DNA of 42,713 nucleotides from a virus (Duplodnaviria > Caudoviricetes), in IMG/VR virus record IMGVR_UViG_3300017700_000502, positions 1 through 42,713 of that record. One strand, 5' to 3'. Positions within the stretch are counted from its first letter, which is position 1. Each line of letters opens with the position of its first letter. Positions 10,528-42,713 of the stretch are shown piece after piece. A program made the translations under genes and the position numbers. The notes beneath the pieces are model-generated. The model had not been told where the DNA came from. It made no database searches and worked only from the letters and a program-made list of their open reading frames with translations.

Positions 10528-12296
10528 TGGCCAAGTTTCAGATAGAGGCCAACGGCAAGCAGTACGAAATCGAGGCACCCGATCAGGCATCGGCCCTGAA
10601 GGCGCTGCAGGGGTTCACTGGCGCCAACACGCCGATCCCTCCCAGCAATCCCATGGCGGCCGACATGCCGCCAGCTCAGCCGCAGGGCGGTGACTGGGAA
10701 CGCGCCACGCTTCTGCCGATGGAGAAGAACAACGCAACCGGCGAACGCCGACTTGCGTGGCCTCAGATTGCCGTCGATGCCGGCAACGCCATGGCGCTGC
10801 CCGGCGACGTGCTGGCGGGCAAGTACACCGACCCCAACGACCCCAACCGCCTCGACTACAACAACCCCGAACTGATGGGGCGCGGGCTTACGCTGTCCAC
10901 GCTGCCCATGCTTGGCGGCGGCGGGATGGCGAAGGAAGCCGCCAAGGGCGGGATGTCGGACCAGACGCGGAACATCCTGTCTCGTGCGCTGAAGGATTCC
11001 GGCATTGAACCGGGACAGGTTGGCGGCAAGATCGCCGAGATCGGCCCTGATGCCGTGATGGCGGATATCAGCCCGCGGTTGCAGAAGATCGCGCAGGCGC
11101 TCGCCACCATGCCCGGCCCCGGCCAGAAGACCGTGCTGGAGGCGCTAACGGCCCGCGCTGAGGGCAGGAACGCTCGGCTGGCTGGTGACGTGACGGATAC
11201 CCTTGGCCCGGCGCCTGTGCCGTCTCAGGTGCTCGCCGGCAACAAGGCGAACATGGACGCGCTTGGGCCTGAGTACGAGGAACTGTTCAAGTACGCGAAG
11301 GCGGTCGATAGCACCCCAATCGCCGAAGAACTCGACGCTGCCATTATCAACCTACGCGGCGATGCCCAGACTGCCGTCAAGAAGGTGCGCGGCATGCTGA
11401 ACCTCTACGGCGAGGATTTGCTTGACCCTAACCCCCGTACACTGTTCGAGACCCGGAACGCTATCGACGGCATGATGGCCACGGAGACAAACCCCAAGGC
11501 CATCGGCGCTCTGACTGCTGCTCGAAAGCAGATCGATGAGGAACTCGCTCGTTCCGTGCCCGACATCAAGCAGGTCGATGCCAAATACGCCGAACTCGCC
11601 CGCCAGAACGAGGCCTTGGGCGAAGGCAGCAAGATCCTCCGCACCGGCCCTGAAGCGCTCCGCCCGTCCGAAGTCGTAGAGCAGATGGTCAGCGGCGCAA
11701 ACCCGCAGGGTATGTCTGTTGGGCCGTCTGGCGTGCCGTTCCGCCTCAGCCAAGGGGCTCGAGCCGATATCGATCGGCTTATCGGCACCAAGGCCAATGA
11801 CCTCCAGGCGCTCAAGTCGCTGATTGGCGGGGAAGGGGACTGGAACCGCGCAAAGCTGGCCGCGGTGTTCGGGGCCGAAAAGGCCGACAAGCTGCTGTCG
11901 ATCATCACGCGCGAAATGAAGTACCAGGCCACCGAGGCCGACGCGCTCACCGGTTCCCGGACGCAGGTGCTGAAGGCCGCGCAAGACGAGATCAACGGCA
12001 AGGAAAAAGGCGCGGGGATATTCGAGAACCTGTTCAACTTCCGCCCCGGCTCGGCTGCTGCAAGTGCTGCGGACAAGGGGCTTGGCTGGGTCGGTGACGT
12101 TCGCCGCTCTGGCGTGAACAAGCAGATTGCCGAGTTGCTGATGAGCAACGATCCGTCTGTTGGCGGGAAGCTCGGCTATCAGCCTTGGGCGATTACGCAG
12201 GCCGCCCCGAGTGCTGGTGTCAAGGCTGAACTCGGTAGCGAGGACGTGCGGCAGAATACCAAGCAGCTCGCCCGCCTGCTTATGCTCGGTCAGTGA
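10527..12296 (+). CDS. Large internal virion / DNA ejection protein
   Basis: 589 aa helical, last of three ejection-type genes. Confidence 0.65.
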   Translation: MAKFQIEANGKQYEIEAPDQASALKALQGFTGANTPIPPSNPMAADMPPAQPQGGDWERATLLPMEKNNATGERRLAWPQIAVDAGNAMALPGDVLAGKYTDPNDPNRLDYNNPELMGRGLTLSTLPMLGGGGMAKEAAKGGMSDQTRNILSRALKDSGIEPGQVGGKIAEIGPDAVMADISPRLQKIAQALATMPGPGQKTVLEALTARAEGRNARLAGDVTDTLGPAPVPSQVLAGNKANMDALGPEYEELFKYAKAVDSTPIAEELDAAIINLRGDAQTAVKKVRGMLNLYGEDLLDPNPRTLFETRNAIDGMMATETNPKAIGALTAARKQIDEELARSVPDIKQVDAKYAELARQNEALGEGSKILRTGPEALRPSEVVEQMVSGANPQGMSVGPSGVPFRLSQGARADIDRLIGTKANDLQALKSLIGGEGDWNRAKLAAVFGAEKADKLLSIITREMKYQATEADALTGSRTQVLKAAQDEINGKEKGAGIFENLFNFRPGSAAASAADKGLGWVGDVRRSGVNKQIAELLMSNDPSVGGKLGYQPWAITQAAPSAGVKAELGSEDVRQNTKQLARLLMLGQ

Positions 12297-12768
12297 ACGC
12301 CGCATAGAGGAACAGACTAAAGCCGGGGGCGGCCATAAGCGGGAAGCCAAGCCAACCCGGCAGGTAGAGTGCGCGGTAAACGTCTGGGTAAAACTGCAGG
12401 ACGCAAGCCGCCCAAATCCCGCTTGCGATTGTAAGACGACGAAGCCACGCGTCAGTCAGGCCGCCAGATGGCGCAACTGGTTCCTCCGTGGCGCTCTGGC
12501 TGACGCTTCGCATCACCCACGCAAATGCCGCCAACGCAGCGGCTAACGCGACAAAAATGATCGTATTGATGACCGACTGGCTGGCGGCTTGTGGTGGCAT
12601 GATACCCCACTGCGATGCCATGCCGACGATGCTTGCGAGCGCGAGAATCCCGCATAGGGCGGCGCTCCAAAGCCCCACCTGAGAGGCCAGCGGCTTTGCC
12701 CGCGTAGCCGCCCGTTTCCACCCCTTCACCCGCCATTCGCCGGGCCGTAGATCAACTTGCTTGGTCAC
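12280..12768 (-). CDS. Antisense multi-pass membrane protein (moron; possible superinfection exclusion)
   Basis: Fills the gap between ejection and tail-fibre genes; about 4 hydrophobic segments; GTG start with GGAG upstream. Confidence 0.65.
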   Translation of the reverse strand: MTKQVDLRPGEWRVKGWKRAATRAKPLASQVGLWSAALCGILALASIVGMASQWGIMPPQAASQSVINTIIFVALAAALAAFAWVMRSVSQSATEEPVAPSGGLTDAWLRRLTIASGIWAACVLQFYPDVYRALYLPGWLGFPLMAAPGFSLFLYAAFTDRA

Positions 12769-24014: not shown

Positions 24015-24151
24015 TTCGCCTTGTCCTTGTACGTTGGTAGGTCGATAGTCCGTGTCACGCGCTGTAGGGCTTCCACGGCCACGAGCAGGCGCTTGGCGGC
24101 CTTGCTGGCAACTTCTGCCTGTTCGGATGGGGTGAGGGGGTAGGGCGTCAT
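24011..24151 (-). CDS. Small hypothetical protein (46 aa), not in ORF track
   Basis: MTPYPLTPSEQAEVASKAAKRLL..; ATGA overlaps at both ends. Confidence 0.6.
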   Translation of the reverse strand: MTPYPLTPSEQAEVASKAAKRLLVAVEALQRVTRTIDLPTYKDKAK

Positions 24152-24945
24152 GCAGCCAACTCCAGCCATTCGATGAGGTCGAGTTGCACCGGGGCCTTGG
24201 GGCTAGAAACGATGCTGGCGATCCGGTCAGAGAACTGCTTGGCCTCTACCCATGAGTTTGGGTTGCGGCCCTGCTTCCGAGCTGCGAATGACCAACCCAT
24301 GCTGTCGGCGGTGGCGAGAAAACTCCGAACGGTGGAATTCAGCAGTGAAGTCACCTTCACCCCGAACCCATGCAACCGGAGGTCGGGCCGCACCTTGGCG
24401 ATTGCCTTCAGGACTGCGGCGATAAGCTCCGGGGAGCCGTTGCGCTTGCACACGGACCCGACGCCGACCCACATGTTTCTGACGAGGCGGTTGCCGTAGG
24501 CGGCGACATGCGCCACATAATCGGAGGGGGAATATCCTTGTAGGACTGGTAGGATAGGAAATGGGCAATTGCCCTCGAAACGGTCGTCCAGAGCTTGCTT
24601 GAGGGCATCGTATCTCTCGATTGTCAGGCGCTGATGGTCGGCAACGGTCAAGCCAGTTTTGGCGAGCATGAAGGCCTCACACATGTAATCCTGTGCGACG
24701 GCAGCATCGATCTGCACGACGCCTTCGCGGTACAGTCGCTCTAGTTCAGCAGCGTATTCATCGACTTCATGGCGATAGGCGCCGTACAGGTTAAGTTCGG
24801 TGAAGGCGCCGCTGTCCACGAGCACGCGAACGCCTGGGATCGGCTTTTTGCGTCCGCGCAGCCGGTTGATGCTGATGCATGCGCGGTCGAAGCGGTGCGC
24901 GTCTGCCGGCTGATGCAGTCCGACGTAAAACCTAACGTCGTTCAT
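24148..24945 (-). CDS. dpdA: TGT/DpdA-like (7-deazaguanine) DNA transglycosylase
   Basis: LVDSGAFT, QDYMCE, LPVLQG, VGVGSVCKR, LHGFGVK, ADSMGW motifs of the tRNA-guanine transglycosylase fold. Confidence 0.8.
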   Translation of the reverse strand: MNDVRFYVGLHQPADAHRFDRACISINRLRGRKKPIPGVRVLVDSGAFTELNLYGAYRHEVDEYAAELERLYREGVVQIDAAVAQDYMCEAFMLAKTGLTVADHQRLTIERYDALKQALDDRFEGNCPFPILPVLQGYSPSDYVAHVAAYGNRLVRNMWVGVGSVCKRNGSPELIAAVLKAIAKVRPDLRLHGFGVKVTSLLNSTVRSFLATADSMGWSFAARKQGRNPNSWVEAKQFSDRIASIVSSPKAPVQLDLIEWLELAA

Positions 24946-28412: not shown

Positions 28413-28817
28413 ATGACGAAATCCACGAAACCCCTACATTTGGTGCAACCCATGACCGTTGAGGCAGCATCCGACTATGCCTCACGCTTGCTAGAATTTG
28501 AGCAGCGTGGTTCCGACACAGAGAGCGCGCTTTCCCGTTTGGAGAAGCGCTACGGGTTCAGCCCGAACCAGATCATTCACCTCCGCTCCGGTCGCGCCAA
28601 GTCGTGCGACGTTGGCTTGTTCGCCCGGCTCAGAGACGCTTACCTTGACCTGTGCGAGCGGCAGGTCGCGAAGCTCCAGCACGAAATCGCAATCACAAAG
28701 GCCACTAGCGATGACACTATTGAGGATCTTGTGGCTGAGGCTGATGCACTCGCTGCAAAGATTCAGGCGAAAAAAGCGGGGCTGAGACTCGCTGCCTCCA
28801 ACGGGAGGCGCAGATGA
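28413..28817 (+). CDS. CII-position regulator-like protein
   Basis: GAGG RBS; HTH-like N-terminus and coiled-coil C-terminus; position downstream of cro. Confidence 0.65.
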   Translation: MTKSTKPLHLVQPMTVEAASDYASRLLEFEQRGSDTESALSRLEKRYGFSPNQIIHLRSGRAKSCDVGLFARLRDAYLDLCERQVAKLQHEIAITKATSDDTIEDLVAEADALAAKIQAKKAGLRLAASNGRRR

Positions 28818-29386
28818 GCCGCTGGCGGAGGACGGCTGACGTAGCGCCGACGCTCATTGAGAAGCACTACCTTGGCCCGATCAAGCGCGGCGATGGCTGG
28901 GCTAATGAGCATGGCGTCATATGCATTGCTAAGCCGACCTCCCGCCGCCTCCCTCTGACTTGGCTGGAACTCACCCGCTGGTGCATCACCAGCGACGAAA
29001 AGAACGCCGGCAGCCGCATGTGGTCCGCCTTCGCGCGTGACCTTCGCGAGCGCTTCCCGGCCGTCACCACCATCGTCAGCTATTCCGACCCATCTGTTGG
29101 GCACACAGGGGCACTCTACCGAGCCTGCAACTGGTGGTGGGCTCCGACATGGCACCGCCTTCGCCCGCCTCCCAGCGGCAACGGCAATTGGGCTAGTGGG
29201 CAACAGTCCGTCAAGGACCGGTGGGTGTTCGCGCTGAAGCGTGACGCTGCCCGACCTGCCTTGCTCGTAGCGCGCGATAGCGCCGTCCTGAAGGCAAAGC
29301 CTTGGGCCGAGTATCGTGAGCCTGGTGGGGCCGACTTTGCCAGCTTCCGCGCAACTCAAGCGCCTGAGCTTCGGAGGGCAGCGTGA
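28814..29386 (+). CDS. Mom-family (GNAT) DNA adenine modification enzyme
   Basis: KHYL..LELTRW..KNAGS..IVSYSDPSVGHTGALYRACNW matches the Mom/XF1762 pattern HYL..EL.R..N.ES..SYAD..GH.G.IY.A.NW. Confidence 0.8.
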   Translation: MSRWRRTADVAPTLIEKHYLGPIKRGDGWANEHGVICIAKPTSRRLPLTWLELTRWCITSDEKNAGSRMWSAFARDLRERFPAVTTIVSYSDPSVGHTGALYRACNWWWAPTWHRLRPPPSGNGNWASGQQSVKDRWVFALKRDAARPALLVARDSAVLKAKPWAEYREPGGADFASFRATQAPELRRAA

Positions 29387-29968: not shown

Positions 29969-30216
29969 ACTTCCCGTTCTTTCGCCTCAAGCCTGATCAG
30001 ATCGATGTGATCGCCGGCCTTCGCGACCAGATCATCGAACTCGGCACGCATGTCCGGTTCCTAGAGGCCGACAAGCCAGTTCCCCAGCCAAGGGATGACG
30101 CCGGCCGCTACGTCAGCAAGGTTGAGATCACCCGCCAGCGTCTCGCTCGGTGCGTCTCTCGCCTTACCCCTGAAGAAGCTCAATCCGCCCGTATGCGGGG
30201 AGGGAGGCGCGCATGA
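29965..30216 (+). CDS. Hypothetical protein
   Basis: ATGA-coupled; PRDDAGRY motif. Confidence 0.65.
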   Translation: MNFPFFRLKPDQIDVIAGLRDQIIELGTHVRFLEADKPVPQPRDDAGRYVSKVEITRQRLARCVSRLTPEEAQSARMRGGRRA

Positions 30217-30683
30217 CCGACACTCTCGACATGTTCGCCGCGGCTGGCGAAACGCTGAACGAAATGGCCAACGGCCCGCACATTGGTGGCCACGCCGGCA
30301 TCACCGAGGCCCTGATGCGCCGGCTCTGCGAAAAGGGCTTGCCGCTCGCCCATCTCGCCGACCGCCGGATGATGAAGCGGTCGCTGTCTACGCTCCAGGC
30401 TCACGCCCGCGAATATGGGCTGGCGTTCCCTGACTACGTCCCGATGGAACTGCGCAAGCGGATCGCCCTGATCCAGATGGGGGACTTCTTCGAGGTCATC
30501 GGCGAAGACGCTCCGAAGGTAGCAGAAACGCTCGGCATTGTCGTCACCAAACGCGATGGCAAGCCCATGTGCGGCGTGCCGGCTCACGTCCTAGATGACT
30601 ACGTGGAGAAGCTAAAGGCGGCCTTCTACGTGGTCAAAATCGTCCGCGCGAAGAAGAAGCGCAAGGCGGCCGCCCATGCGTAA
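30213..30683 (+). CDS. Small protein containing a stand-alone MutS domain I (mismatch-recognition)
   Basis: IALIQMGDFFEVIGEDAPKVAETLGIVVTKR..PMCGVPAHVLDDYVEKL..Y.V.IV aligns by eye with MutS LLFYRMGDFYELF.DDA..A..L.I.LTKR..PMAGIPYH..YL.KL...G..V.I. Confidence 0.85.
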   Translation: MTDTLDMFAAAGETLNEMANGPHIGGHAGITEALMRRLCEKGLPLAHLADRRMMKRSLSTLQAHAREYGLAFPDYVPMELRKRIALIQMGDFFEVIGEDAPKVAETLGIVVTKRDGKPMCGVPAHVLDDYVEKLKAAFYVVKIVRAKKKRKAAAHA

Positions 30684-30885
30684 CGCCATCACAACCAAGG
30701 ACGTGCTGTACGCCCTCCAATACCTCAACGACCGGCTCGTGATGCATCCGGGCGGCAAGTGGCGCCTGCAATCAGGCCATCCAGTGCCGCCACGTGTTGC
30801 TGACGAGGCAAAGTCTCACGGCGGCGTCATCGGCATCCCAGATCATAGCGGGCTGGCTGTCTACGGCTGGGCTCGCGCCGCCTAA
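30676..30885 (+). CDS. Hypothetical protein
   Basis: Overlapping coupled ORF. Confidence 0.65.
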   Translation: MRNAITTKDVLYALQYLNDRLVMHPGGKWRLQSGHPVPPRVADEAKSHGGVIGIPDHSGLAVYGWARAA

Positions 30886-30900: not shown

Positions 30901-31209
30901 ATGACACAACCCCCCAAGCTAGATCGCAAGGCGGTCGCCGAAAACCTGACGCCTCGCACGTCGATGACGCCTGAACTCTACAACGAGGCATGCCGGCTGA
31001 TGTCGCTCGGCTACTCGCCGCGGCACGCTGCCTACATCGTCAACATCCAGGTTTCGCAGCTCGCCTGTTTCATCACAGGGCAGGGCGACGCGGACGGGAT
31101 TGAAACCCTCGAGCTCGAATGCCGGATCACCCGCAACAAGCGGATCAAGGCGAACATCGAAGCCTATCCGAGCATGCGCCTGTGGCCTGAGCAAGAGGTG
31201 GCAGCGTGA
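30901..31209 (+). CDS. Hypothetical HTH-like protein
   Basis: AGGAG RBS; LMSLGYSPRHAAYIVNI. Confidence 0.65.
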   Translation: MTQPPKLDRKAVAENLTPRTSMTPELYNEACRLMSLGYSPRHAAYIVNIQVSQLACFITGQGDADGIETLELECRITRNKRIKANIEAYPSMRLWPEQEVAA

Positions 31210-32054
31210 GCGTCGATTTCCTGCCGAACACTGCCAGCGAGACACAGCGGGCTCTGGCCAAGGCGCACATGGAGCGTCGGGCTAGGCTGTATAACGCGCC
31301 TGCGCCGGCTGTGGTTGCCGTAGCTCAACCGCCGCGCAAGCTGGTTGTCGTCGCGCCAGTCTCGCCTCCGCCTCCTGTGGTGGCGCCTGTGGGTGTTGTT
31401 TCAGCGCCGCCGCCGGCCGCGCCTGTCGCGCCAGATGCTGGCAACTGGACTGGTGACGAAGTCACTCAGCTCGACGTGCTCTGGAACGTGGAAGGCAAGA
31501 CCGCCAGCGAGTGCGCCAAGGTACTCGGCAAGACGCGGAATGCCGTCATCGGCAAAGTCCACCGTCTAAAATTCAGCAAGCGCATGACCAAGAAACAGAA
31601 GTCGGTCGGCTGGTCGGCAGCAGCTCGCGAAGCGGCGCGTGACAGGCGAGCTGCAGTGATGAAGGCCAAGCGAGCCGCCGACGATCTCCCGAGGATGGTG
31701 TTCCGAAACAACGGCACCGCCGTCAAGGTCGCGCCGCCAATCGGCGCAAGCGACAAAGACCTGGTGGCTCAATGGCTGGCCAGAAACGGCGGCCCTCGAA
31801 AATTCGAAAGCGGGGCTACTGGCGATCCCGGCATGATCGCCTTGTGGCTGCGGTCTCGAGGATTTCAGACGAGTTACAAACAAGGGGCCGGCGGTGGCGT
31901 GGTCAAGGTCATCTACCCCGATGGCAGGCGGGCAGCGCTGACGCTCAAGAAGCTCACCGACCTAGCGGACTCAATACGGGTTCTGGAGGGGCTGACCCCG
32001 CTGGGGCAGCAGAACGCCACACTGGTTAAGGAAGGGTTAATGCAGGCCGCCTAG
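31206..32054 (+). CDS. gcrA: GcrA-family N-terminal-domain protein
   Basis: NWTGDEVTQLDVLW..GKTASECAKVLG.TRNAVIGKVHRL; canonical C-terminal CRWP/KWP domain not seen. Confidence 0.8.
   Translation: MSVDFLPNTASETQRALAKAHMERRARLYNAPAPAVVAVAQPPRKLVVVAPVSPPPPVVAPVGVVSAPPPAAPVAPDAGNWTGDEVTQLDVLWNVEGKTASECAKVLGKTRNAVIGKVHRLKFSKRMTKKQKSVGWSAAAREAARDRRAAVMKAKRAADDLPRMVFRNNGTAVKVAPPIGASDKDLVAQWLARNGGPRKFESGATGDPGMIALWLRSRGFQTSYKQGAGGGVVKVIYPDGRRAALTLKKLTDLADSIRVLEGLTPLGQQNATLVKEGLMQAA
32026..32040. promoter_or_regulatory. CtrA-binding box
   Basis: TTAA-GGAAGGG-TTAA = TTAA-N7-TTAA. Confidence 0.65.
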
Positions 32055-40458: not shown

Positions 40459-40622
40459 GCCTAGACGAAGCGGCTAAGTACCTCGGCATTCCACCCGGCA
40501 TGCTGCACTCGCTGGCATGGGCCAACTCGGTAAAGACCGAGCAGCCGAAGAACTACTGGCATCCGACCTTCGCCAAGGCTGACCTTGACGAATGGCTCCG
40601 CGACGTAAAGCGGAAAGGCTGA
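40455..40622 (+). CDS. Small HTH_17/Xis-like protein (55 aa), not in ORF track
   Basis: MSLDEAAKYLGI..L..W..F.KADLDEWL; ATGA overlap. Confidence 0.6.
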   Translation: MSLDEAAKYLGIPPGMLHSLAWANSVKTEQPKNYWHPTFAKADLDEWLRDVKRKG

Positions 40623-40630
40623 ACCACCTC

Positions 40631-42713
40631 ATGGCCGAAGAAATGCCCAACCTGCAGCAAGTGCGGGAACGAGAGACCTTTGCCCGGTGGAAGGCAGAGA
40701 TCGACTTCGCGCAGAAGGACGACAAGTACGTCGCCTGGCTGCACCGTTGCCAGAAGATCGTGCAGCGCTACCGGGACGAACGGCCGAACCCGCAGGACAC
40801 GGCCAAGCGCCGGATGAACATCCTGTGGTCCAACGTGCAGACGCTGATGCCGGCGATTTACGGCAAGATGCCCAAGCCGATTGTTGAGCGCCGGTTCATG
40901 GACCGCGACCCCGCGGCCCGGCTGGCGTCCACCATCCTCGAGCGCGTGTGCTCGTTCCAGATGGAGGTCGGATACTACAACGCCTCGGTGCAGAAGTCTG
41001 TGCTGGATTACCTGCTGCCCGGCATGGGACAGGTGTGGGTGCGGTACGAACCGCAGTTCGAAGCGTCGGAAGAGGCTGGCGAGAACGAACAGGTCGAAGC
41101 CGAGGTTGAGGCGGAAGACCCGAACCGCTCCGCTGAGGACATTGCCGAGGAAGGCGATGGCTCGATCTATGAGAAGCTGGCCTATGAGCGGGTCTGTGTC
41201 GATTACGTGTTCTACCGGGACTTCCTGTGGGGGCCGGCAAGGAACTGGCAGGAAGTGCCGTGGGTGGGGCGCCGTTCGTGGCTGACTCATTCGGAGGTTG
41301 CCGAAAAGTTCTACGACGACGATCTGCAAAAGGCCAAGCGGATCACGCTCGACTATACGCCCGACAAGCTGAAGGACACCACGTCCGAAGAGGACAAGTC
41401 GGTCTCCTACTTCAAGAAGGCCGAGATCTGGGAAATCTGGAACAAGGCCGACCGGACCGTCTACTTCATCGCCCCGAACACGCCAGACGTGGTGCTGAAG
41501 GAGGAAAAGAACCCCGTTTTGGCGCTTGAGAACTTCTGGCCGTGTCCCGAGCCGCTGTTCACGACGCTGACCAATGACAGCCTTATCCCGGTGCCCGACT
41601 ATGTCGAGTATCAGGACCAGGCGCAGGAGGTTGACGACCTCACCAACCGCATCGCCAAGATCACCGACGCGGTGCGGGCGAACGGCGTGTACAACGCCAG
41701 CTATCCGGCTATCCAGCGCTTGCTGCAGGAAGGCACCGACAACAAGCTGATCCCGGTCGATGACTGGGCGGCGTTCTCCGAAAAGGGCGGCATGCAGGGT
41801 GCCATGGCGCTCGTCCCCATGAAGGAGATCATGGAGGTACTGCTACGGCTCTATGAGGCCCGCGCGCAGGTCAAGACCGACCTCTACGAAGTGACCGGCA
41901 TTTCGGACATTGTCCGCGGGCAGGCGAGCGGTGGGGGCGCCAAGACGGCGACCGAGCAGCGCATCAAGGGGCAGTTCGCCAACCTTCGCCTGCAGGACCG
42001 GCAATCAGCCGTGGCCAATTTCTGCCGATCGACGCTGAAGATCATGGCCGAAATCATATCGGAAATGTTCTCGCCGGAAAGCCTGTTGCAGATGTCCGGC
42101 GTGCAGCAGATGCAGCAGGATGCGGTGCAGAAGGCCGTGGCAAAGGTAAAGCCGCCGCAGATGCCGCCAGACGTGCCGCCTGAGCAGCAACAGCAGTTGC
42201 AGGCCCAGATGCAGCAGCAGTTCCAGATGATGCAGCAGCAGGCCGGCCAGCAGGCACAGGCCGAACAGGACGCACAGTTCGCCAAGGCGCTGGAAATCCT
42301 GCGCAGCGACAAGCTGCGGGGCTTCCGGGTCGATATCGAGACCGACTCCACGATCCTCGCTGATGCAGAGGCAGACCGGCAGTCGGCAATCGAACTGTTT
42401 ACCGCCACGTCGCAGGGCAGCCTGTCGATTGCGCCGATTGCGCAGGCCGCGCCCGAACTGGTTGAGCCGATGGGCGACATTCTGCTGAACGCCTACCGCA
42501 AGTTCCGCGTGGGCCGGTCGATGGAAAGCTCGCTTGAGGACGCGCTGATCAAGGTGACGGAACGGCTGCAGGAATCCGCGGCCAATCCCCAGCCGAACCC
42601 TGACCAGATCAAGGCTCAGGCCGAGATGCAGAAGCAGGAAGCCGAGACCAAGCGCCAGGAACAGGAACTCGCCAACGACCGCGAGCGCCACCAGATGGAT
42701 ATGGCGGCGCTGC
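40631..42713 (+). CDS. Portal protein (about 789 aa when joined to 3..410)
   Basis: Open from ATG 40631 to window end; NILWSNVQTL.PAIY, YEVTGISDIVRG, FRVDIETDSTI; between terL and scaffold. Confidence 0.9.
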   Translation, partial: MAEEMPNLQQVRERETFARWKAEIDFAQKDDKYVAWLHRCQKIVQRYRDERPNPQDTAKRRMNILWSNVQTLMPAIYGKMPKPIVERRFMDRDPAARLASTILERVCSFQMEVGYYNASVQKSVLDYLLPGMGQVWVRYEPQFEASEEAGENEQVEAEVEAEDPNRSAEDIAEEGDGSIYEKLAYERVCVDYVFYRDFLWGPARNWQEVPWVGRRSWLTHSEVAEKFYDDDLQKAKRITLDYTPDKLKDTTSEEDKSVSYFKKAEIWEIWNKADRTVYFIAPNTPDVVLKEEKNPVLALENFWPCPEPLFTTLTNDSLIPVPDYVEYQDQAQEVDDLTNRIAKITDAVRANGVYNASYPAIQRLLQEGTDNKLIPVDDWAAFSEKGGMQGAMALVPMKEIMEVLLRLYEARAQVKTDLYEVTGISDIVRGQASGGGAKTATEQRIKGQFANLRLQDRQSAVANFCRSTLKIMAEIISEMFSPESLLQMSGVQQMQQDAVQKAVAKVKPPQMPPDVPPEQQQQLQAQMQQQFQMMQQQAGQQAQAEQDAQFAKALEILRSDKLRGFRVDIETDSTILADAEADRQSAIELFTATSQGSLSIAPIAQAAPELVEPMGDILLNAYRKFRVGRSMESSLEDALIKVTERLQESAANPQPNPDQIKAQAEMQKQEAETKRQEQELANDRERHQMDMAAL
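42591..42713 (+). repeat. Terminal direct repeat copy 2
   Basis: Identical to 1-123. Confidence 0.97.

Follow-up and report, generated by a model that had tools for sequence, protein, structure and literature searches.

The window, i.e. the whole stretch of 42,713 nucleotides analysed here, is complete as a virus record, has direct terminal repeats, and encodes an integrase, CI/Cro-like regulators, a terminase, and head and ejection proteins. Integrase, CI/Cro-like regulators, and structural genes mark it as a temperate phage, which is probably podovirus-like. In its rightward early operon, with cro/cII-like genes on one side and a replication gene on the other, lies a gene (30213..30683, + strand) for a 156-aa, net basic protein (computed pI 9.3) that joins a phage helical module to a trimmed MutS domain I and a basic tail. 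The gene has a GGAGG ribosome-binding site recognised in the sequence (30203..30207, +; 5 nt upstream of the ATG), its ATG overlaps the stop codon of the upstream gene (ATGA), and the next gene overlaps its own stop by 8 nt, in agreement with the two-sided coupling noted in a preliminary description of this DNA. Promoter and terminator scans gave chance-level output only; the gene is presumably expressed early.

Along the same strand, residues 4-8 (TLDMF, 30222..30236) resemble a beta-clamp motif with Thr instead of Gln (putative), residues 14-82 (30252..30458) form the helical module that ends with FPDYVP and whose pattern and weak fold matches are HTH-like, and residues 83-146 (30459..30650) form the MutS domain I core of five strands and two helices, including the wedge G90-D91-F92-F93-E94 (30480..30494). 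The KKKRK tail that had been pointed out before occupies residues 147-151 (30651..30665). Elsewhere in the window, a gene at 31206-32054 (+) encodes a 282-aa protein that has a GcrA-family domain (PF07750, E 2e-11) and a linker rich in Pro and Ala; DNA-modification genes are present in the phage as well. The late region contains long opposite-strand ORFs (12280-12768, 40553-41329, 41884-42480, and 42005-42691, all -) with no PHROG match; the first of these looks like a membrane protein and possible moron, and the other three may be shadows.

The MutS domain I core and the phage helical module

A MutS domain I had been proposed at residues ~83-145, with Pfam and Foldseek suggested as a check, and both confirmed residues 83-146 as a MutS domain I core. 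PF01624 (MutS_I) matches residues 80-153 along profile positions 14-92 of 113 (E 9.1e-14, 52.1 bits, cut-off 20.6), and the top solved relatives in phmmer, Taq MutS (E 2e-07) and E. coli MutS (E 1e-04), match residues 84-138. An AlphaFold model of the fusion protein (pLDDT 75, pTM 0.49) superimposes on domain I of MutS and MSH3 with an rmsd of 1.2-2.0 A over 64-66 columns in Foldseek and with Z 8.8-9.0 in VIA. The GDFxE, TKR, and PMxGVP motifs that had been recognised by eye have their counterparts in E. coli MutS, as G90-D91-F92-F93-E94 aligns with G34-E38 (F92 with F36, E94 with E38), T112-K113-R114 with T56-R58, and M119 with M68.

The phage copy thus has the fold, the Phe-X-Glu wedge, TKR, and PMxGxP in common with domain I of MutS1 (PF01624; E. 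coli, Taq), but it is trimmed, joined to a phage module, and devoid of other MutS domains. Profile positions 1-13 and 93-113 are absent, so that the first helix and the last strand of domain I are missing; relative to Devosia MutS, these two elements are gone as well and the loop after TKR is five residues shorter. PF01624 is the only Pfam match in the 156-aa chain, which bears out the reported lack of ATPase, clamp, and MutL-interacting domains: connector, core, clamp, ABC ATPase, and dimerisation domains are all absent, whereas MutS1 proteins carry connector, core, clamp, and ABC ATPase in one chain of ~850-900 aa. The label ‘stand-alone’, on the other hand, has to be dropped for a domain that is fused and trimmed. 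A split or frameshifted mutS was rejected; the flanking genes on both sides match no MutS family and the complete 42.7-kb genome contains a single PF01624 match.

The N-module is also encoded alone, in phage proteins of 80-100 aa. Three to four helices were modelled overall (26-41, 45-48, and 58-68 among them). The HTH-like nature proposed earlier for this N-terminus is putative and weakly supported: no Foldseek match had E<=0.001, the best VIA match had Z 5.6 (none reached 8), HTH proteins had Z 4.0-4.9, KorB (rmsd 2.0 over 42, Z 4.4) and NarL (rmsd 1.6 over 37, E 5) matched weakly, and HTH Pfam matches occurred in two of 42 members. Neither the whole protein nor the module had a Pfam match to ArdC-N, MPTase, LPD, or similar conflict domains, and the ESM Atlas gave no usable feature match for the N-module. 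In fused proteins, MutS-I is placed between the N-module and the module's basic tail, and as the relatives that consist of the module alone also finish with a basic tail of this kind, KKKRK is probably derived from the phage module. Further C-terminal additions, namely a Cys-rich tail and an additional domain of ~70 aa behind MutS-I, were observed among P0020, P0052, P0064, and P0081, and the N-module appears to be a frequent fusion platform.

The overlapping downstream gene (30676..30885, +; 69 aa) belongs to a viral hypothetical family with weak winged-helix-like structure matches; it has no Pfam or PHROG family, and the ESM Atlas returned hypothetical viral clusters only. Such a gene of 69-75 aa follows the module gene in 6/10 other loci, one of them module-only. 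Its copies in L001, L115, L116, L117, L119, L138, and the window contain an invariant KDVLYAL and overlap the stop of the module gene with or without MutS-I. Its product is a possible candidate for a partner of the module protein.

Distribution, conservation, and origin of the fusion

Of 47 candidates from a word-index search, 18 belonged to the family: 16, the window's own protein among them, are fused, and two consist of the N-module alone; one fused protein (P0015) has an aberrant C-terminus. Locus scans yielded three module-only viral loci and one short fused metagenome contig besides the window itself, and a further viral locus scan added four new fused loci among seven matches. The single real match among 16 genome contigs was a prophage of Devosia epidermidihirudinis, identical to L116, in a genome that also encodes host MutS. 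The carriers of the fusion are alphaproteobacterial (Devosia-type) temperate phages. Across 243 genomes of that Devosia species' family, three had an N-module match among the matches listed; two of these are fused genes and the third is a truncated remnant. The rest of the listed matches were host MutS, and 76 further matches were weaker. An exhaustive profile search retrieved 3209 proteins, and the best 150 of them comprised 50 with the module only, 12 with both parts, and 30 short, 24 middle, and 34 long proteins with MutS-I only. As the module outnumbers the fusion among these best 150, it can be regarded as an independent and commoner phage protein.

Other approaches gave no additional members: a single-protein scan of viral contigs (one candidate, none confirmed), an alignment-based scan of genome contigs (383 candidates, none confirmed), a search with the junction DNA pattern (8/8 chance matches), the TEAL pattern (18 loci, the sole family contig being the already known L002), the best 80 terminase-related viral loci (no family member within 10 kb), and word-index searches of low sensitivity for shorter or longer relatives of the MutS part. 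None of the 27 matches in annotated phage records covered 80%; seven were inspected and proved to be four full-length MutS and three other proteins with internal or terminal MutS-I. Two irregular module genes were encountered, i.e. a module-only gene in two frames near its 5' end (L002 5585-5849; frameshift or assembly error) and a truncated module remnant in a non-phage context (L139).

In the 21 fused members aligned, G90 and D91 are invariant, although this pair may be a mere structural turn, position 92 carries Phe in 17 members and Tyr in the other four, and E94 is retained in 17, R114 in 15, K113 in 13, and M119 in 12. Outside the wedge, V103, L134, and K142 are invariant and H125 is present in 19/21. 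Eight additional full-length fused representatives all have the wedge aromatic, and four have the Glu. Among 64 sites, F92 ranks 11th and E94 17th in conservation, and PF01624 detection fails in 3/5 relatives of a Tyr-rich subclade. The window copy is among the most MutS-like, with F, E, M, and TKR all kept, and has one of the shortest branches in the tree. The N-module is more conserved than MutS-I (mean pairwise identity 61% vs 46%, 20 sequences, P0015 omitted). Both modules are under purifying selection: pN was below pS in 21/21 pairs for each module (seven DNA sequences), with pN 0.36 vs pS 0.65 for MutS-I, where pS is near saturation.

These data bear on the possibility that the gene is a decaying, functionless fragment captured from host mutS. 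Motif erosion in several subclades, the aberrant P0015, the frameshifted L002, and the truncated L139 would fit such decay. However, the reading frame is intact in relatives down to 42% identity, pN<pS holds in 21/21 pairs and also in 10/10 pairs within the Tyr-rich subclade, and the fused domains stand apart from the MutS of alphaproteobacterial hosts in the tree. We consider decay largely refuted and highly improbable, in line with the earlier view that the gene is not debris.

The tree was built from 81 hand-picked domains and 69 columns, with a bootstrap that did not converge, with P0015 and P0040 omitted, and with no one-clade test. In it, 28 fused domains lie on one side of a 99/97 branch, their nearest neighbours being very short MutS-I proteins (88/75, weak support), while alphaproteobacterial MutS forms a separate 100/87 group away from them. 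Recent direct capture from host mutS was therefore rejected within the limits of this 69-column tree. P0027 and P0028, in which the N-module is followed by a basic linker and a longer MutS-I that retains the first helix, are placed apart from the fused clade (99/90 branch) and apparently represent an independent fusion. This suggests that the module captured MutS-I twice, and that the source was a mobile pool of mini-MutS-I genes and not host mutS.

MutS-I outside MutS is already known from polyvalent proteins and from the MSL proteins of diversity-generating retroelements (DGR). Polyvalent proteins of phages and conjugative elements (PMC5512222) likewise carry MutS-I on mobile DNA; their domain, too, ends near profile position 80-91, and 6/15 of the longer MutS-I hits that we scanned had polyvalent-type domains (ArdC-N, MPTase, DarA-C, LPD25, or SNF2/methylase). 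The phage fusion differs in having only two modules in 156 aa, no ArdC-N or other polyvalent domain, and a location in alphaproteobacterial prophage early operons, whereas the polyvalent examples given there come from Bacteroidetes and Firmicutes elements. MSL proteins (Wu et al., PMC5758913; Bacteroides Msl, bioRxiv 10.1101/2024.11.15.621889) are described in those texts as small (112-283 aa) and homologous to the mismatch-recognition part of MutS, like the phage protein, but as near-neutral and encoded in a reverse transcriptase (RT) cassette, while the fusion has pI 9.3, carries the helical module, and has no reverse transcriptase. A DGR accessory gene was rejected, as a cassette with RT, avd, TR, and VR is lacking and RVT_1 was found in 0/5 records (the complete window genome and four related ones; the control was positive in 3/14 genomes). 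Short viral MutS-I entries in BFVD (A0A8S5PPT8, 153 aa; A0A8S5L9N2, 84 aa; A0A8S5PL02, 74 aa) have the same minimal core from the first strand; these entries and metagenomic cores of 63-71 aa are without the N-terminal module, unlike the fusion. MutS_I-only sequences had been seen earlier and reportedly were not followed further (PMC10140301). By class membership, the phage fusion thus falls outside MutS1, polyvalent proteins, and MSL cassettes, although it may work like them. The literature search found neither a characterised phage MutS-I protein nor a report of the fusion with a phage module, either of which could be listed in subscription papers or in the supplements of DGR and polyvalent-protein studies. 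The earlier statement that no characterised example is known consequently applies to function, while MutS-I outside MutS was already in print (PMC5512222, PMC5758913).

Possible functions at mispaired or distorted DNA

By established MutS biology, a protein with neither ATPase nor connector forms no sliding clamp and does not load MutL. Since the wedge is kept in the phage protein while ATPase and connector are absent, we tentatively favour, at somewhat below an even chance, a non-catalytic binder of mispaired, bulged, or destacked DNA that would passively mask such sites from host MutS. Following early expression from the rightward operon, helical module and basic tail would grip DNA, replacing the missing MutS clamp domain, and Phe92 would insert at a weakly stacked base, possibly with the N-terminal peptide holding the protein at the beta clamp. 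As no part of the protein signals to MutL, site occupancy would blunt mismatch repair or anti-recombination on phage DNA. Of the anti-mismatch-repair decoy put forward earlier, the anatomy is supported: an intact gene under purifying selection encodes the wedge but neither ATPase nor clamp nor connector, as would suit a mismatch binder that does not signal. The decoy is weakened by the loss of the discriminating Glu and Met in 4/21 and 9/21 relatives, respectively. In favour of a masking binder are the MutS-I fold and motif, the wedge aromatic in 21/21 and 8/8 fused members, pN<pS in both modules, the two suggested captures by one module, the net basic charge, the clamp-like N-terminal pattern, and the host MutS encoded alongside the Devosia prophage copy.

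In MutS, Phe36 stacks on the mismatched base and Glu38 bonds it, F36A loses specific binding, and E38Q abolishes discrimination (PMC3848065); in engineered E. coli MutS, F36Y still bound heteroduplex, at twice the protein ratio of the best variant, and mismatch binding was lost in M68H (PMC13494400). According to PMC10432192 and PMC13756796, mismatch detection by MutS also requires the dimer's clamp domain. Hence the eroded Glu and Met in relatives and the absence of clamp and dimerisation domains count against a masking binder, as do the conservation ranks of F92 and E94, the predominance of module-only proteins over fusions, and the higher conservation of the module. The benefit of a decoy is likewise unclear because lambda Red homeologous recombination is already MutS-insensitive: PMC2327257 reports that recombination of diverged sequences was not raised by loss of mutS. 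Its authors left open a phage inhibitor of MutS or MutL as one cause, which speaks for masking, as does the report that host MutS cuts DGR heteroduplex outcomes 5-10-fold (bioRxiv 2024.11.15.621889). Sak4 recombineering was reportedly assayed in a mutS strain only (PMC5928155).

Somewhat less probable, and second in our ranking, is a general binder of DNA structures that would serve a phage regulator or replication helper as an accessory. Here the helical module would do the main job, e.g. control of transcription or of an origin, in which the 69-aa protein perhaps takes part, while MutS-I would only strengthen binding to DNA that is bent, unwound, or at an ss/ds junction and would leave host mismatch repair unaffected. 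The N-module being better conserved than MutS-I and more often alone than fused speaks for this explanation, as do an operon position and a downstream partner that stay the same whether or not MutS-I is fused, the decay of Glu and Met while fold and aromatic persist, and the ssDNA recognition that Iyer et al. 2017 proposed for mobile MutS-I (PMC5512222). It fits less well with the window copy, which retains F, E, M, and TKR on one of the shortest branches, or with the Phe-X-Glu kept in 28/30 of the short mobile MutS-I proteins, and the HTH assignment is itself weak.

The N-terminal peptide opens up a protein-level alternative, i.e. a decoy that would occupy the beta-clamp pocket or mimic a MutS surface for a host partner, with DNA binding being secondary. 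The pattern [QT]x[DSE][LM][FL] occurs within the first 14 residues in 22/24 close family members vs 10/3618 background ORFs, a comparison in which the pattern was picked after viewing the family, the members are related, and the background includes spurious ORFs; moreover, QxD[ILM] is present in 14 of 50 module-only representatives, and some residues outside the wedge are invariant (V103, L134, K142) or nearly so (H125 in 19/21). The consensus of the clamp motif is QL[S/D]LF and its Gln-to-Ala change abolishes binding in peptide assays (bioRxiv 10.64898/2026.05.27.728225). Positions 3-5 of the phage peptide fit this type in 23/24 members, but the Gln is present in 3/24 and missing in 21/24 (Thr in the window copy), the full pattern is found in only eight of the 50 module-only representatives, and the stretch was modelled as a helix with low confidence. 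The peptide could equally well be a helix cap; it possibly tethers the protein to the beta clamp as a putative motif, and we regard a protein-level decoy as improbable.

The preliminary description had further linked the gene to Sak4-mediated recombination or to the reading of modified bases. The leftward operon encodes DpdA, Sak4, an exonuclease-like gene, and NinB, and Sak4 thus lies 7 kb from the fusion gene in an opposite operon. We compared four other fused records and one module-only record, whose completeness was 49-100%, with 100% in a single one. AAA_24/Sak4 was found in 0/5 (0/4 fused), which leaves the Sak4-linked role unsupported. Mom was found in 0/5 (0/4 fused) by a search that does detect the window's Mom, and DpdA was likewise found in 0/5 (0/4 fused) in a search without a positive control. 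An obligatory tie to Sak4, Mom, or DpdA was rejected on the basis of these records.

As for the enzymes themselves, the window encodes a Mom-family adenine-modification gene (28814-29386, +; PF25680, E 6e-13) 830 bp upstream of the fusion gene and a stand-alone DpdA deazaguanine-insertion gene (24148-24945, -; PF23859, E 4e-45), and no precursor-synthesis genes were seen among the ORFs scanned of this DpdA- and Mom-carrying phage. A related phage locus (L022) has DpdA too (63% identity). In L005, a partial ORF (1-177, +) 200 bp upstream of the fused gene presumably resembles XF1762/Mom-like proteins, judged by eye, and has no Pfam match. A reader of bases modified by the phage's Mom-like, DpdA, or methyltransferase enzymes would be consistent with this neighbourhood and with methyltransferase genes near the fusion gene in L115, L119, and L138. 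Methyltransferase genes are, however, common in this region of such phage genomes, a weak match also lies beside the module-only gene of L003, and the 0/4 counts for Mom and DpdA in fused records give no support from co-occurrence; we find such a reader very unlikely.

Returning to the masking of mismatches, a more far-reaching form, which we rate as unlikely, would be a phage-encoded protein that inhibits mismatch repair in the host: as a mini-MutS riding on the clamp, it would follow the replisome and cap fresh mismatches and recombination heteroduplexes but be unable to call MutL, with a wedge captured twice from mobile MutS-I genes of 63-100 residues. If true, it would constitute the phage ‘immunity against mismatch repair’ that was proposed but not found for lambda, together with a minimal mismatch sensor of 64 residues. 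PMC2327257 raises the question whether phages actively dampen the mismatch repair of their hosts so as to speed up mutation or recombination, and PMC5512222 and PMC5758913 describe mobile-element MutS-I and DGR MSL proteins without a tested function. The intact wedge, the natural module-only relatives, and the Tyr/Val variants make the phage protein a small test case with built-in controls, which would show whether a 64-residue core senses mismatches without the clamp and dimer of MutS. Even smaller proteins were observed in the metagenomic data, where P0080, P0090, P0114, P0128, P0136, and P0157 (63-71 aa) consist of the MutS-I core alone, from the first to the fifth strand; some may be fragments, and the others are candidates for the smallest mismatch-sensor genes.
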